A stretch of 29,777 nt of DNA, taken from IMG/VR virus record IMGVR_UViG_3300030433_000970, positions 1 through 29,777 of that record; one strand, written 5' to 3'. The notes under the pieces were generated by a model that worked only from the letters and a program-made list of their open reading frames with translations, was not told where the DNA came from and ran no database searches. The stretch comes from a virus (taxonomy: Duplodnaviria > Caudoviricetes). Positions 76-29,777 of the stretch are shown here, piece after piece (position 1 is the first letter of the stretch; each line of letters starts with the position of its first letter). Made by a program: the position numbers and the translations under genes.

Positions 76-117
76 AGGCCTGGGGAAAGGAACAGCGAAT
101 TCTTAACACCCAGGCCT
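76..117 (-). terminator. Stem-loop at the 3' end of the late operon (possible terminator or regulatory hairpin)
   Basis: Perfect 9-bp GC-rich inverted repeat AGGCCTGGG (76-84) / CCCAGGCCT (109-117) with a 24-nt loop, overlapping the endolysin stop codon; only a weak U-tract follows. Confidence 0.6.
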
Positions 118-601
118 ATTTGTTAATATTAGATATCAACGATTTAAACTTAGCTACACTACCTTTACCTTTGCTAGTATTATATGCAATCTTCCACATG
201 GATCCAGCTTCATCAATAGTTTTAGGTAATGGTTGTGGTGACCGCCAGTATTTTAATCTAGCCATTACAATAGCTACAGCCATGTTATGTTCTAGGACCC
301 ATGACCAATCATTTAAATTCTCAGATTCCCATAAGCTAGGATCGGTCATAGTTGCTTTAGCGCATTGTTCTCTTACTACTTTTCTGTATTTTAAATAATG
401 CTTTACACATGATACAGCACTTTCAGGTTCAAACTGCCAAAAGCTTTTAGCTGGACCATTGTTTAATTGTTGTATGTACTCATACCTAGATTCAACGTAT
501 CCAGTCCAAAACAGTAGCTTAACGGCATTATTATGGTTGTACTTATGCCCTAACCGCTTTAAAGTATTTTTGATTAGATTTTTGACCTGGTCGTGGTTCA
601 C
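116..601 (-). CDS. Putative endolysin (lysozyme-like fold)
   Basis: Last gene of the late operon, after membrane-protein genes; helix ending in a catalytic-type 'ES' (TGYVESRY), then GPAKSFWQFEP and WKIAYNT, as in lysozyme-like phage lysins. Confidence 0.65.
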   Translation of the reverse strand: MNHDQVKNLIKNTLKRLGHKYNHNNAVKLLFWTGYVESRYEYIQQLNNGPAKSFWQFEPESAVSCVKHYLKYRKVVREQCAKATMTDPSLWESENLNDWSWVLEHNMAVAIVMARLKYWRSPQPLPKTIDEAGSMWKIAYNTSKGKGSVAKFKSLISNINK

Positions 602-6429: not shown

Positions 6430-7836
6430 TTAAGCAGTTCTAACGTATGCCACCCCACCAGCTACCTGGAATCCACCAACTGGTACTGATGTGTCTGTTG
6501 TGTCTAATGTTGCTTTTACAGACTGCAATGCAATCCTGGTCCCACTAGATGGTAAGGCCGCTGAACTATTACTTCCAACAACCCAGGCACCTTCTGATGA
6601 ATCATACCAAAAACAAGCATTATCTCCTGACGAACCTTGTTCAACAACGATTCCAGCATCAACAGCTGTACCAGTTAAATCACTGTTAAGTACTAAGGTA
6701 TTATCTGCAATTTCTAATGTTTCTGTGTTAGTAGTAATGGTTGTTCCACTTACTGTTAAGTCTCCACCAACTGTTACATTACCAGTAAAAGAAGGACTTG
6801 CTAAAGGTGCTTTTGCATTAAGCTGAGTTTGAATATTAGATGTAACTCCATCAACATAATTTAGTTCGGCAGTTGTTGCTGTTACTCCATCTAATAAATT
6901 TAATTCTGTTGCAGTAGCTGTAACACCATCAAGAATATTCAATTCAGCAGTTGTAGATGTTACCCCATCAAGAATATTTAATTCTGATGCAGTAGCAGTT
7001 ACTCCATCTAAGATATTTATTTCATCTTTAGTTGCTGTTACTCCATCAAGAATATTTAATTCAGCGGCAGTAGATGTAACTTGAGTACCATTTAAATGAA
7101 AATGTACAGTTCTTACACTTCTTGTATGAATATCATCCCAAACATTACTAGCACCACCTAATTGAACACTTCTATTTGCAGTTGGTTGTAATATATCTTT
7201 GTTAGCAGAATCATCACCACTACTTATAAATTCCATAGTATCTGTATCATCATCGATACCAAACAATATTTTACCTTCAGCTGGTGAGCCATCAAATTCA
7301 AATTTAATTCTAGGTTTTTGGTCACTTACACCTATTAATAATGCATTGTTTGTAAGTTCAGTTACATTGCTAATAGTATTGTCAAGATTTATTGTTACAT
7401 CACCACTAGCACCGCCACCATTTAAACCAGTTCCAGCACCTACAGTTGTTATATCTCCTGATTGTGCATCAGCCCAACTAAATGTACCATCACCATCTGA
7501 TTGTAAAACTTGGCCTGAAGTTCCATTTGCACCAAGTCCAGCTAAGTGTACTGGGTCTACTGCGCCATCTGCAATTTCTGCTGAATTAACCGCATCATCA
7601 GCCATCTTTGCATTTGTTACTGCATTTGATGCTAATGCTGTAGCATCTACAACTCCCGATGCTAAACTAGTTGATAATGCTACTGCACCACTTCCATTAA
7701 AGCTTACTGCACTAGCAGTGACATCACCAGTAATACTAAAGTTTCTTGCTGTTGTTAATGTGGCACTAGAACCAGTTGTGCTTTGCGCTATAGTATCAGC
7801 ACTTGTTTCTGTAACCACCTTTTTAAATGTTGCCAT
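6430..7836 (-). CDS. Tail fibre / fibre-like structural protein
   Basis: AAGGAG RBS; fibre motifs ARNFSITGDVT, GTSGQVLQSDGDGTFSW, GDITTVGAGTGLNGG, KAPLASPSFTG; tandem 13-aa repeats. Confidence 0.85.
   Translation of the reverse strand: MATFKKVVTETSADTIAQSTTGSSATLTTARNFSITGDVTASAVSFNGSGAVALSTSLASGVVDATALASNAVTNAKMADDAVNSAEIADGAVDPVHLAGLGANGTSGQVLQSDGDGTFSWADAQSGDITTVGAGTGLNGGGASGDVTINLDNTISNVTELTNNALLIGVSDQKPRIKFEFDGSPAEGKILFGIDDDTDTMEFISSGDDSANKDILQPTANRSVQLGGASNVWDDIHTRSVRTVHFHLNGTQVTSTAAELNILDGVTATKDEINILDGVTATASELNILDGVTSTTAELNILDGVTATATELNLLDGVTATTAELNYVDGVTSNIQTQLNAKAPLASPSFTGNVTVGGDLTVSGTTITTNTETLEIADNTLVLNSDLTGTAVDAGIVVEQGSSGDNACFWYDSSEGAWVVGSNSSAALPSSGTRIALQSVKATLDTTDTSVPVGGFQVAGGVAYVRTA
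6847..7080 (-). repeat. Six tandem 39-bp coding repeats (VT[A/S]TxxE[L/I]NxxDG)
   Basis: Translation shows six consecutive 13-aa units followed by VTSNIQTQLN. Confidence 0.9.
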
Positions 7837-7862: not shown

Positions 7863-8492
7863 TTATGGTATAGCCACAAAAACCTGACCATCTTTGTTTA
7901 CAATATCCCCATCCGTTGGGCTAGATGGTAATGTTGAAACACTTTTTAATTTCAATGTACCATCATTTTTTGCTTCCAAACCATTGTCAGCATCTAAAAT
8001 CAATGTTCCATTTGGTCCATTAATTTCAATTTTTTCTTTCATTATTACTGGTCTAAGTAGATTTAATCTTGCGCCATTTGTGGCATCGTAATTAATTCTA
8101 GCTACGTTAACCTGGCTATCATTTGTTTGGTCCCTTAAACTCAACATATCTGCCTTTATATCATCAGCTGTAATATCATCTATAGTTAAATCACCAGTTA
8201 CAGATAAATCACCAGTAATAGATAAATTTCCATTCAAGCTATTTATCTCTAAGGTCCCAGCGGTCAACTCCCCAGTTACTGTTAAATCACCAGTGACTGT
8301 TGTATCTCCAGTTATTGTTGTAGTACCAATTATATCTAATGTGTCTGTACCTAGATATAAAGGACTGCCAACTCCTTCACCATCAAAAACACGCTTAGCT
8401 GTAGATTCCAAACCCTGATTAGGTGTGCTACTGGCTACAGTCAATAAATCTTTATATGTTTCCGCTGGTGTTTTATTTAATAATGATGCCAT
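7863..8492 (-). CDS. Minor tail/fibre-like protein
   Basis: GGAG RBS; 6-aa TGDL(T/S)V repeats suggesting a beta-helix; first gene of the fibre module. Confidence 0.7.
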   Translation of the reverse strand: MASLLNKTPAETYKDLLTVASSTPNQGLESTAKRVFDGEGVGSPLYLGTDTLDIIGTTTITGDTTVTGDLTVTGELTAGTLEINSLNGNLSITGDLSVTGDLTIDDITADDIKADMLSLRDQTNDSQVNVARINYDATNGARLNLLRPVIMKEKIEINGPNGTLILDADNGLEAKNDGTLKLKSVSTLPSSPTDGDIVNKDGQVFVAIP

Positions 8493-8543
8493 AATTACTC
8501 CGAATTTTTAATAATATGCAGAAGTATTAAACATATTTAAGCG

Positions 8544-11500
8544 TTATTTTTCATATTCATCTTGATTCCTAAGAAACCTATCCACCCTATTATTTATAGC
8601 ATCTTCTTGTTCTTGGGTTAATTGTGGGTTTTTATCAAGATAAGATTCAGCATATCTAACAAGCTTATTTACTTCAGCCTCTGTATAATTTTTTCTCTTA
8701 GAATTCTTAAACATGTTAAACATATATTCCAGTTCTGAATTCTTTCTAAACTCACCAAAAAAGTTTCTTATTAAAGGAACTTCATCTACTTTAAGATTAT
8801 TTTTATATAAATCAATTGGTGCGCTAATTAATCTTGCTACACTTTTACCTAATCCACCAGATAGATATTGAGTAAAGTATTCCAAAGTTTCAGGGCTTAC
8901 ATCCCCAAATCCATCTAAAGGACCATGTTCAGCACCGACAATCTCACCATCTTCATCATATATAAATTTATTTCCAGTCAAAGCATACCAAAATTCAGCA
9001 GATTCTTTATATACGGCTGGTGTGTTATCCCATGCTAGTTGTACATCAGCTGGTGCCTCCTGATATACTTCTGGATATATTGGGCCACCATAAAAATTTT
9101 TATTAGCACCTAACTGTATAAATGGCTTTACAATTGTAGGTGATATCATTTGTTCTATAGGTGAATCCCCTAATGGATTAAATGAAGCATTTATAGCTGT
9201 TAACAGCCTAAATAACTGGTCTGATTTATCGATTGGCTGTCCACTATGTGCGGCCCATGCAAAGTCTCCAGTAATGTTACCTACAACTTTAAATACATTA
9301 AATCCATATGGTAATCTAAATTTTAGATACTTATCACCTTCACCATATTTTGCTACGAAATAATTATCTTTTACAAAATTACCTAACTTATCATATTCTT
9401 CATTATCGTCAGCCATGTGATTTACAAAAGATTCCATAAATCCCATTGCTACTAATGTGGCTACAGCTTGTTGTGCTTTTTTAGATTTCCCTACAACTGT
9501 CATTATTCTGTAACTACCTTGCAATCCAGCATTAGCAAATAACCATAAACTATTTATTAATGGTCCCCATTCACCTTTTCTATTAAAGTTTATGGTTACA
9601 TTCTTTGCCGCTGATGCCGCTTTTGCATCTGAATAACCAGCATCTATCATAGCTTTAAATAATGTAAGTCTTACAGAAGATTCTGTTGCTTCGTTTAATG
9701 ACTCAACAAATCCTAATATATTTTTACCAGCATCTTTAATTGTGTTCTTGTCTTGACCTACTTTATTTAAACTCTTTTCTAATCCATCTAATTTTTGTTC
9801 TATGCTTTGTATATCAAAAAATCCAGTTTTACCACCAGCAAGTCTCATTCTATTGTATAAGTCACCCCACTCAGAATCAACTTCATCATTTTGAACAATA
9901 TCATAAACAGCTTTCCAACTATTTTTTAAGTTTGTGGGAGACAAAGCCTGACTTCTTATTTCACTACCTTGTTCAGCACTTATATTGATACCAGCTGTTT
10001 GAATGTCTCTGACAAAATTTGAAAATATGAATTCTACATTATATATAGTATTTACATATCTTAGGTATGTGTTAAAATTATTTAAAATAGGTATAGCTTT
10101 TGATACGCCTATACCTCGTAATGCTTTTGCTATTCTAGTACCTTTTGGTCCCTTGAAAATGATTCTCTTAGTTTTACCATCTACTTTAACATTTAAAACA
10201 TTATCCTGGTTTACTTTATTACCTTCACTATCTTTTGCAGATAATGGTGTCATATATTCAATTTCACCATTGTCATTATAAACTGGCTTATGACTAATAC
10301 CTTTAACTTCAAATGCATCACTTGGATACGCCTGGACCAAAGCTAATACTTTTTTATTTACCTCATTCTTTTCCGCTCTAATTATAGCACTATGCATTCT
10401 TTCAGCCGCACTAACAATAATATTCTTGACTGGCTTTTTACTACCTTTCGCTCTAGCATATTCTCTACCGCCAAAAATATTAAAACCCTTGCCTTTATCC
10501 ATGCCTAAATAACCGCTTGAATTCACTAAATTATCAGTATCATCCATCTCTCTAAATAATGGCACATAATTTTTAAATACTCCATCTTTCAGACTATCAT
10601 AATCCTTTTGACTTAATAAACCAGCATCTAATCTTACCTTTAGTTCTGGTTCAATAAATATTTGCCTAAACTCTTTAGTGTACGCTCTTAAATTTTTTAA
10701 GCCATACTTTTTATTTAGTTCAGCTTTTATTCTTTTAGCTTCGCTATTTGACATACCACTACCACCATCTTTATATTTAGATTTAGGTAATCCAGCTATG
10801 TAAGCATTTCTTTCTGCGGCATGTTGGGCATGTAAATACCTACTAAAATCATCAATAGATATACCAACATTTTTTATTAGTCTATTTACAAAACTATCTT
10901 GTTTATGACCATTAATAGCTATGTCATTAAAATCAGATATTCTTTCTGGCATTCTACCAACAGCTAATTCTGCGGCTAATGCAACATCTCGCTCTTCAGT
11001 GACTTTATTATTCTCTAAAAATTGACTTTCAATATCCTCTTGCCAGGTTATTATAGGCGTAAGGGCATCAATAATCTTTCTTCTTACAACACCAGAAATA
11101 CTTTCATCTGATAATTCTAATGGGGCGTTTTTTGTAGCCGACTTTATTTGTGCGGCTAAATTAGGATTGGGTCCTAGCTGGTAGGTTAACTGGTCTTGCT
11201 TGGCTTTCTTTTCAAGCGCTTCTCGAATTTGTTGTTCAACTTGAGGTCCATAATGATTGTCGAGCCTTTTTTGTATATCGGGTCCGAAGCTGTCGGAGAG
11301 TTTATTACGATACCGCTGTCCAGCACTATCTTTTTTCCAGTTGTTGTTTGTTCTTTCATAATTTATCCCTAGTTCATCTAAATTTAACTCCATCCCAACT
11401 TCTTTCATAACCCTTTTTATTGCTGAAGTTAGCTGGGTGCTATAGTTATTTATATCTACGCGCTTAACATTTGTAGGTATCATAAGAGCGCCATCATCAA

Positions 11501-28386: not shown

Positions 28387-28616
28387 ATTCTTCCCTTGGT
28401 TTTATTGGTTGTCTTTACGACTATAAAAAGTTTTTTCATATTCTGTCTGGGACTCCTACATGATATTCGGGCCGATGGGACCCGACCAATGGGATGGCCC
28501 CCCTCGCAAATAATTTAATCGGTGTCGATACACATTATAAATATTTTCACAAGGCAAAGCGACCCAGCCCATTACAATAACATGCAGACCTCCTCGGTAC
28601 AGCATCATCTGGCTCA

Positions 28617-28982
28617 CTATTGGCTCACCTCTGGCCCAGGGTCACCAACGTCACCAGGGGACTCGGTAGGCAGAAAAGTTTCGCTCACAGCCTGGCCAGT
28701 CGTACCTATTTTAGGTGGGTCAAGCGGCGCCTTCTCAGGCAGAACAATCACCCCAGTTATACCCTTCTGTTCCACTTCCAATTGCATTGCTTTTAAATCT
28801 GGAACCAGCTTTGGCAGTAGGATACGCCACGCTGATACCTGGCGCTTATCATCATCATTCATAGCTACATCAAATAGCTTCTGTATTAATTCGTTCTTCT
28901 GTGGGTGGTTACGAACCAGGTCCTTCACTGACGTTTTAGGCCTCCCAGTGGGATTACCTGACTCTCCTTTTGTAAATGGCAT
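28617..28982 (-). CDS. terS: Terminase small subunit
   Basis: N-terminal FTKGESGNPTGRPK (DUF5681-type motif), VPDLKAMQLE, GVIVLP; upstream of TerL. Confidence 0.75.
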   Translation of the reverse strand: MPFTKGESGNPTGRPKTSVKDLVRNHPQKNELIQKLFDVAMNDDDKRQVSAWRILLPKLVPDLKAMQLEVEQKGITGVIVLPEKAPLDPPKIGTTGQAVSETFLPTESPGDVGDPGPEVSQ

Positions 28983-29146: not shown

Positions 29147-29488
29147 ATGTTTTTAGTTACTGATTATAAAGTTAAAACCAACATCACAACTGAGTCTTTT
29201 AAGAAGTTCATCAAGAAGTGTATTGACTATGATATCTTCGCTAACATGGACCAGGGTGTTATCAAATTTCGTGCTGACTATGTTGTTGACATGCGACCAG
29301 CACATAGTGAAGCCAACTACGCTGTCTGGAACTGGATGGGTACACTCAGACTAGTTGATTACAGCCAACCAGATGCATTCTCAAAGCAGTCAGGTGACTG
29401 GCCAATCATTACTGATATCTATTTCAGTAAGGAACTCAACAATACAATCTGCATCCATACTACTCTCGATAGTTCTGAAGAAGAGTAG
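29147..29488 (+). CDS. Hypothetical protein (probable early gene)
   Basis: AAGGAG RBS, ATG, 113 aa; first ORF of the divergent unit. Confidence 0.8.
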   Translation: MFLVTDYKVKTNITTESFKKFIKKCIDYDIFANMDQGVIKFRADYVVDMRPAHSEANYAVWNWMGTLRLVDYSQPDAFSKQSGDWPIITDIYFSKELNNTICIHTTLDSSEEE

Positions 29489-29491
29489 CAT

Positions 29492-29551
29492 CCATACTGA
29501 TGATGGCCCAGGTGGTTCCTGGGCCGAAACACTAAGTGTCTATGGTAACCA
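29492..29551 (+). ncRNA. Type I hammerhead ribozyme
   Basis: Stem I CCAUA/UAUGG; core CUGAUGA (29497-29503); stem II GGCCCAGG/CCUGGGCC; GAAA; stem III ACAC-UAA-GUGU; GUC cleavage triplet ending at 29540; loop II UGGUU complementary to AACCA (29547-29551). Confidence 0.92.
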
Positions 29552-29574
29552 AAAATAACAAAAGGAACAGCGAT

Positions 29575-29777
29575 ATGAAATTAGCAAATAGATATTCAAA
29601 GGGTGTCACATTACACAGCAAGTCAGAAGGTGACTTAAGATATTCCCTCAGACGTAAGGTCATCAATGTAATCTATGACACCAACAGAAGATTACAAGCG
29701 CTTGGAATGGCTCGTCTACCTAGAATTGAGGTCAGGATTGTTAAGTCAGCTAACTATGCTGGAATGGCTTACATTGG
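29575..29777 (+). CDS. Partial hypothetical protein (runs off window)
   Basis: AAGGA RBS, ATG at 29575, open to the window end: MKLANRYSKG...LPRIEVRIVKSANYAGMAYI; weak resemblance to the N-terminal part of zincin-like proteins. Confidence 0.7.
   Translation, partial: MKLANRYSKGVTLHSKSEGDLRYSLRRKVINVIYDTNRRLQALGMARLPRIEVRIVKSANYAGMAYI

Follow-up and report, generated by a model that had tools for sequence, protein, structure and literature searches.

Complementarity between the terminal hairpin of a late operon and tagged ribosome-binding sites in an uncultured tailed phage: a candidate antisense RNA

Why should the same 13 nucleotides (nt) lie near both ends of a phage genome fragment, once in the loop of a hairpin closing the late operon and once as the ribosome-binding site (RBS) of a gene on the opposite strand? 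The question is raised by the IMG/VR record IMGVR_UViG_3300030433_000970, a partial tailed-phage genome whose entire 29,777 bases are the stretch of DNA analyzed here (the window). Its minus strand carries the terminase, portal, major head protein and tail genes, ending with a gene of 161 amino acids (aa), and a divergent plus-strand operon starts within the final 630 bases. We propose, with moderate confidence, that the late-operon hairpin acts in trans as an antisense RNA, blocking translation of integrase and accessory genes that bear the matching site (the tag) late in infection. The features on which this proposal depends are as follows.

76 to 117, minus strand: terminal hairpin of the late operon, with a G+C stem of 9 base pairs (bp) and a 24-nt loop; the stem overlaps the stop codon of the last late gene.
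86 to 98, minus strand: 13 nt complementary to the tagged RBS, consisting of a part opposite the Shine-Dalgarno (SD) sequence (anti-SD part) and a spacer-specific part.
94 to 98, minus strand: apical loop of 5 nt, predicted to cap an inner stem of 4 bp (90-93 with 99-102), with an unpaired probability of 1.0.
29561 to 29573, plus strand: tagged RBS (SD core and private spacer), the proposed target of the loop, identical in the related contig L002.
29575 to 29777, plus strand: 5' part of the target gene, with a full 141-aa orthologue in L002.

A preliminary description of the window had drawn attention to the 13-mer at 86-98 and 29561-29573, and the two copies are indeed an exact direct repeat, the second followed by an ATG at 29575 and the first, as had also been stated, by no start codon. 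The perfect 9-bp stem around the 24-nt loop was found as described (76-84 with 109-117), and the minus-strand fold of 76-117 reached -20.3 kcal/mol (z -4.5), a stability equalled by none of 200 shuffled sequences. The late-strand loop is antisense to the ribosome site of the early gene, as had been claimed, over 13 nt, and the predicted duplex of loop and target has an energy of -21.5 kcal/mol, compared with -6.0 to -10.4 kcal/mol for the loops of other lineages. A single 13-nt match is weak evidence by itself, because the window holds 42 maximal direct repeats of at least 13 nt, three of them with at least six G+C; under an order-2 Markov model applied post hoc, about 1e-3 plus-strand hits were expected for any of the 12 loop 13-mers. 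The target-gene product resembles, on sequence grounds, SprT-like and phage metallopeptidases: its L002 orthologue carries an HExxHxxGxxH motif, and its match to PF10263 (E 0.025) lies below the cut-off.

The phage is uncultured and temperate, is itself represented by this 29,777-base contig only, and has no annotated phage close to it. Relatives (given here as L numbers) were drawn from viral and metagenome contigs; they supply the part of the genome beyond the window, and it is only in them that further targets were looked at. Their layout runs from the late genes through the hairpin, a tRNA-like attachment (att) region, a helix-turn-helix repressor and a rightward replication block to a leftward operon ending in the integrase. 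Identity to the last late gene of the window is 95% in L001, 55% in L004 and 50% in L005/L104; the L097-L101 group is distant, with 29-30% identity in a replication-block protein, another lysin and another tRNA-like att segment.

Sharing of the tag by other early genes, which the preliminary description had anticipated, was found in these relatives. In L001, 10-13 nt of the 13-mer stand at the ribosome sites of four of the six leftward genes, the integrase included, a 12-nt copy lies in the repressor leader, and the operon leader has a further 13-nt match that, judged by eye, lengthens to 18 pairs when two G.U pairs are counted; in L141, five starts bear the tag. A different tag occurs at five leftward genes and the repressor leader of L089, whose record ends before the lysis genes (that of L084 also ends before the hairpin region). 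Across five relatives, matches of at least 8 nt to the phage's own loop were present at 20 of 28 leftward early starts versus 1 of 116 rightward starts, in gene sets chosen by position after the lists of open reading frames (ORFs) had been seen and with shadow ORFs and repressor genes excluded; when all minus-strand ORFs were retained, own-loop matches numbered 4/9, 4/14, 3/10, 5/10 and 4/8. A tag is present at the start of the integrase gene in L001, L004, L097, L098 and L099 (8-13 nt) and in L141. Shuffled loops preserving the anti-SD core equalled the observed match in 0, 17, 1, 1 and 12 of 2000 cases in the five relatives, and the signal therefore lies in the spacer, beyond the SD sequence alone.

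Moreover, loop and tag change together, a co-variation that the preliminary description had proposed to examine. Hairpins occur at the equivalent place in L001, L102, L004, L104 and L097-L099, and all eight, including that of the window, lie on the mRNA strand at most 60 nt from the last late stop codon. L004, L005/L104 and the L097-L101 group have a different loop there, matching that phage's own tags, so that four different loop types are each paired with their own tag; the true pairing ranked first among 24 permutations, with a poor fit of L004. An orthologous 71-74-aa gene behind the integrase bears three different tags, each with a 9-10-nt match to its own loop. The seed complementary to the target start regions covaries, then, and does so most weakly in L004. 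The 13-mer at 86-98 is identical in L001 and L102 despite differences at other loop or stem bases, and in L102 two stem pairs are altered on both sides with the loop 13-mer intact; the stems were compared directly, the MAFFT alignment of the hairpins being too poor for counting stem pairs.

These comparisons also bear on a reading without any RNA regulation, in which the tags are homogenised cassette borders that serve gene shuffling in the manner of promoter-early stem-loops (PeSL), and the hairpin is a plain terminator that captured an inverted copy. Cassette genes do vary among close relatives and are flanked by repeated units of hammerhead ribozyme plus RBS, PeSL-type shuffling has a precedent in T4-like phages (PMC4122927), and L004 fits the antisense reading poorly. 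Such an origin would, however, require a new inverted capture at one place in each of four lineages, and it agrees badly with a 13-mer left unchanged while the stem pairs of L102 change, with tags on the non-cassette integrase and repressor leader, and with a loop of 14-24 nt, unusual in a plain terminator; we consider it very unlikely.

Sequestration of the loop by an internal GAAU/GUUC pairing had been named as a possible objection to an antisense role. The pairing is indeed predicted, and the inner stem covers most of the anti-SD part, but bases 94-98, the complement of the spacer between SD and start codon, stay fully open, which leaves the readers of the private spacer exposed. A comparable inner stem with altered letters is predicted in L104, weakly in L097/L098, and none in L004. 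With this architecture, an antisense RNA from the late operon could act as follows. Late transcription would cross the lysis genes and stop at, or be trimmed to, the terminal stem, and the RNA would probably be the 3' end of the late transcript, stabilised by its hairpin. The open apical bases would pair first with the private spacer of a tagged site in a kissing start, after which the inner 4-bp stem would open and pairing would zip over the SD core to 10-13 bp or, at one leader site of L001 and counting G.U pairs, as many as 18. Binding of the 30S subunit would thereby be blocked on the integrase, on accessory cassette genes and, in some lineages, on the repressor leader, locking in lytic growth, and spacer-first pairing would spare ordinary ribosome sites.

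As a transcript end, 76-117 may be described as a candidate antisense RNA module combined with a weak terminator. Of the features of intrinsic terminators, the hairpins have the G+C stem; their loops measure 14-24 nt where a short loop is usual, and the U-tract is good in the relatives, the late-strand tails having 4-7 T in 8 bases in seven of the eight hairpins. Several observations weigh against a late-strand antisense RNA. The window is the exception in this series, with the weakest late-strand tail (3 T in 8), and its plus-strand tail, within the last codons of the lysin-like gene, has 5 T in 8. A promoter and terminator scan of 1-700 returned no terminator, and two weak promoter-like sites versus 2.5 expected, while contigs from RNA runs matched small shares of the window only, none over 76-117 or the hammerhead, and are hence uninformative. 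In favour of the late strand, inner transitions in matched sites kept G.U pairing with the late-strand loop seven times versus once with the other strand (four further changes were transversions), but this count is small and not independent, with changes common to L097/L098 and chance sites included, and a C-to-T bias could also yield it. On the side of the tags, 8 of the 28 genes inside leftward operons are untagged, as is the integrase start in L104; L097/L099 have a tag on one rightward gene; a site in the repressor leader was found in L001, L102 and L089 only; the L004 tags fit the L097-type loop (mean 10.4 nt) better than their own short loop (8.0); and the independent loop types number only four.

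The strand of the tails matters for a second reading, in which the plus-strand hairpin is the working RNA and serves as a sense-tag decoy for a protein that binds the tagged sites, after the logic of CsrA and CsrB. The plus strand of 76-117 folds nearly as well (z -4.4), GGA is present in the loop, a decoy and its sites would covary too, and the T-rich plus-strand tail of the window would suit such a transcript. Nevertheless, the plus-strand tails of L004, L104 and L097-L099 have just 2-3 T in 8, a two-way terminator-like hairpin was seen by eye in L001 between the repressor gene and the terminal hairpin, the promoter scan found no plus-strand promoter upstream of the hairpin, the G.U bias is on the late-strand side, and the reading comes without an identified candidate for the binding protein. 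Altogether, a decoy seems distinctly unlikely.

Equal base-pairing with another timing is also conceivable, the hairpin RNA being made in the lysogen from its own promoter as a layer of RNA immunity over the integrase and accessory genes. The P1 C4 and P4 CI RNAs, phage antisense RNAs of the lysis-lysogeny switch, are models for such immunity. All the covariation evidence would fit it equally, the integrase is among the targets, and the window, L001, L102 and L004 each have a TATAAT some 75 nt upstream of the loop; this hexamer, however, corresponds to two conserved codons of the lysin-like gene (Tyr-Asn), is accompanied by a poor -35 and is absent from L104 and L097-L099, and a site in the repressor leader suits repression in the lysogen badly. 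On balance we regard transcription from a lysogenic promoter as unlikely. No Rfam family reached its threshold anywhere in the window, C4 and other antisense families included, and the sub-threshold matches at the hairpin were rejected as chance.

The preliminary description had further suggested that the antisense loop is coupled to a ribozyme ahead of the target gene.

29492 to 29545, plus strand: type I hammerhead ribozyme in which an additional U separates the CUGAUGA core from stem II; the cut is predicted after 29540.

The GUC of the cut lies at 29538-29540, 20 nt upstream of the tag, as had been reported. The element has the core sequences CUGANGA, GAAA and UH, with stems I-III joined and stem I open, and an alignment of nine hammerhead copies had 144 of 144 cells paired (100%), three pairs altered on both sides and an invariant stem I; judged by this covariation, it is a real type I hammerhead. 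The Rfam hammerhead models remained below threshold, the best being RF03152 with 17.9 bits versus 56.3. An extra U ahead of stem II is tolerated in some viroid hammerheads. In L004 (8860-8920, minus strand), a hammerhead-like element with CCGAUGA replacing CUGAUGA and a long stem III precedes the integrase and is possibly decayed or a variant.

Coupling would mean that cleavage is under the control of the antisense loop, or that the loop is directed specifically at the message released by the ribozyme. Consistent with this, the tag stands 10-25 nt behind a hammerhead in the window, in L002 and at some genes of L001, L004, L104 and L089, and one L001 hammerhead (10278-10298, minus strand) has 8-bp stem II arms identical to the terminal stem arms of the window (77-84 and 109-116). 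Tags and ribozymes nevertheless each occur alone within one operon, the leftward genes of L001 comprising one with hammerhead and tag, one with hammerhead only, three with tag only and one with neither; the available DNA of L097, L098, L099 and L101 has tags but yielded no hammerhead; and the tag is predicted to be open alike in cut and uncut mRNA. The coupled switch is therefore not supported, and we give it scarcely any weight; under antisense control by the late-operon hairpin, the hammerheads would cut the tagged operon into single-gene messages, as a separate layer. Several stems in this phage family are built from GGCC/CCWGG words. In the lineage without hammerheads, most tagged leftward genes have a palindromic repeat containing GTTTAAAC ahead of them (minus strand; L097:9680-11400 and L098:9250-11000); the repeat also occurs at the integrase, on its attP side, and may be an operator or a site of processing.

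The layout may be regarded, from the sequences, as a variant of trans-acting antisense control, and the comparisons with known systems made below extend to the portions of the cited papers that were available. The closest described pattern appears to be the start-associated sequence (SAS) of Cluster K mycobacteriophages, whose role was given as unknown in 2011 (PMC3203893) and in 2024 (PMC11373665), which has one reverse copy in K1 phages, and whose reverse sites are listed in Figure S3 of PMC3203893; SAS-type tags also occur in Cluster EF Microbacterium phages (PMC7302621), and PMC9262239 and PMC4351075 yielded nothing on SAS function. Both systems place an asymmetric tag, longer than SD pairing requires, at the ribosome sites of many non-structural genes. 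They have no sequence relation, however, the 13-bp Cluster K consensus being unmatched by the tags described here, and inverted repeats like those of the extended SAS (ESAS) were not seen upstream in the leaders of relatives inspected by eye.

The reverse SAS copy of K1 phages spans a predicted hairpin loop in CrimD, Adephagia, SgtBeansprout and Niklas, and the region is present in 133 mycobacteriophage records. CrimD has 14 forward copies in the 47.8 kb analyzed and a lone reverse copy across the loop (L116:46785-46870); in Adephagia (L123:1240-1320), as in CrimD, the loop is on the mRNA strand. The Adephagia hairpin falls in the gap separating genes 92 and 93, where RNA-seq is reported to place the onset of late transcription (PMC11373665). 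The K1 layout parallels that of the window, in favour of the proposed antisense role, although the reverse copy is at the start of the late transcript in K1 phages and the hairpin is at its end here, and SAS genes of Cluster K are co-directional with the late genes, whereas the tagged genes here are opposite. The reverse copy was not found in AnnaSerena (whole genome, two mismatches allowed) or in stretches of about 900 bases of Keshu and SirPhilip.

Other regulatory RNAs offer partial parallels. OppZ and CarZ of Vibrio cholerae are small RNAs derived from 3' untranslated regions, cut by RNase E, that feed back on their own operon (PMC7398697); there, as proposed here, an operon transcript inhibits translation through its 3' end, which base-pairs around a start site, but the targets here would be several tag-sharing genes of another phage operon on the opposite strand. 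Lambda OOP and aQ, P22 sar and 24B_1 are antisense RNAs of the lysis-lysogeny switch (reviewed in PMC12197685) and likewise phage RNAs that pair with phage mRNA, in a choice between lysis and lysogeny that we propose here as well; they have one target, mostly on the opposite strand of their own locus, and none is described in the available part of that review as a late-operon hairpin directed against a shared RBS tag. For SdsR, RseX and ArrS acting on fepA, terminator loops are regulatory, likely without base-pairing, with Hfq and RNase E needed (PMC11979758); a regulatory loop in a terminator is proposed here too, in this case with 10-13 nt of exact complementarity. Clustered intergenic hammerheads are known near prophage integrase genes (PMC3088659) and resemble those of this family in their several intergenic copies in a polycistronic phage-like operon near an integrase, while the extra U behind the CUGAUGA core and the very short stem III mark the present family, and the available passages of that paper mention no antisense partner. 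In the open-licence literature, to which the search was confined, no description of this layout of hairpin loop and RBS tag was found.

The association of loop and tag is real and well supported by comparative evidence, and an antisense RNA is its likely explanation. Tentatively, it can be extended to an RNA-addressed regulon, in which a private tag would mark integrase, accessory and repressor messages, late transcription itself, through the complementary hairpin at one end of its product, would turn off lysogeny functions with no protein regulator, swapped-in cassettes would join by acquiring the tag and hammerheads would yield separately addressable messages; the same idea would explain the SAS tags of K1 phages. 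If true, an early gene set that includes the integrase would be shut off, protein-free, by the end of the late transcript alone, through an address rewritable lineage by lineage. The idea gives a direct test, in cultured phages, of the function of the SAS tags in Cluster K, open in print since 2011, and the matched loop-tag pairs of four lineages are natural candidates for orthogonal translation switches.

The remaining annotated features of the window are genes flanking these elements and a likely part of the att site.

116 to 601, minus strand: last late gene, 161 aa, phrog_3108 (function unknown), lysin-like by position only.
28617 to 28982, minus strand: probable small subunit of terminase, opening the late genes and divergent from the tagged operon (weak match; DUF5681 in the L001 orthologue).
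29147 to 29488, plus strand: first gene of the early operon that runs leftward in the relatives, with an ordinary AAGGAG site and untagged; its L004 orthologue is tagged.
41 to 50 and 52 to 61, no strand assigned: two direct 10-nt repeats, likely arm-type integrase sites of attP, a role we infer.

The role of 28617-28982 would follow from its location ahead of terL. Right behind this terS-like gene, a G+C-rich, repeat-bearing stretch (28400-28620) is kept in L002 and may be a packaging or regulatory site, and short internal repeats of 14-20 nt occur at 6875-7062 within a 468-aa gene of the tail region. In a lysin-based search of viral contigs, the hairpin was found at L004 and L005 among the matches listed, the best 80 of 547 loci, and the remaining loci among those listed appear to hold the lysin-like gene in another context. 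An exact scan for the tag plus ATG gave 42 matches; just three of them, L085, L141 and L148, belong to this phage family, and L145 has one gene in common with it. In L102 (1990-2240), the att region and the rightward early block have no repressor gene between them, yet the repressor leader retains a tag copy with one G.U-compatible change.

Relatives have different repeat pairs at the place equivalent to 41-61, and next to these the 3' portion of a tRNA gene; the att core of the window phage itself lies beyond the contig end. The Marinimicrobia are the likely host of the L001 and L102 relatives, because these match the 3' portion of tRNA-Ser(GCT) exactly over 59 bases in three genomes, of which one is Neomarinimicrobiota, versus 29 bases in two Desulfovibrionaceae. 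A prophage search found nothing in genome contigs and, among 401 genomes of the suspected host phylum, hits in just nine, all weak. The att-like region (L001:2000-2090, L004:1795-1890, L104:1853-1947) has a divergent 5' half followed by a tRNA-Ser 3' half identical to the host, and ARAGORN called a full tRNA only in that of L005/L104. In L001, the integrase (8364-9470) stands about 6 kb from the att-like site (1950-2180), at the end of the variable cassette operon, and in L097-L101 it adjoins att. Finally, in a Neomarinimicrobiota genome, two copies of this tRNA-Ser 3' segment enclose an 8-kb element that includes an integrase gene and a terS-like gene (L112 and L114, PCCQ01000029.1) and is possibly a satellite on the same att site.
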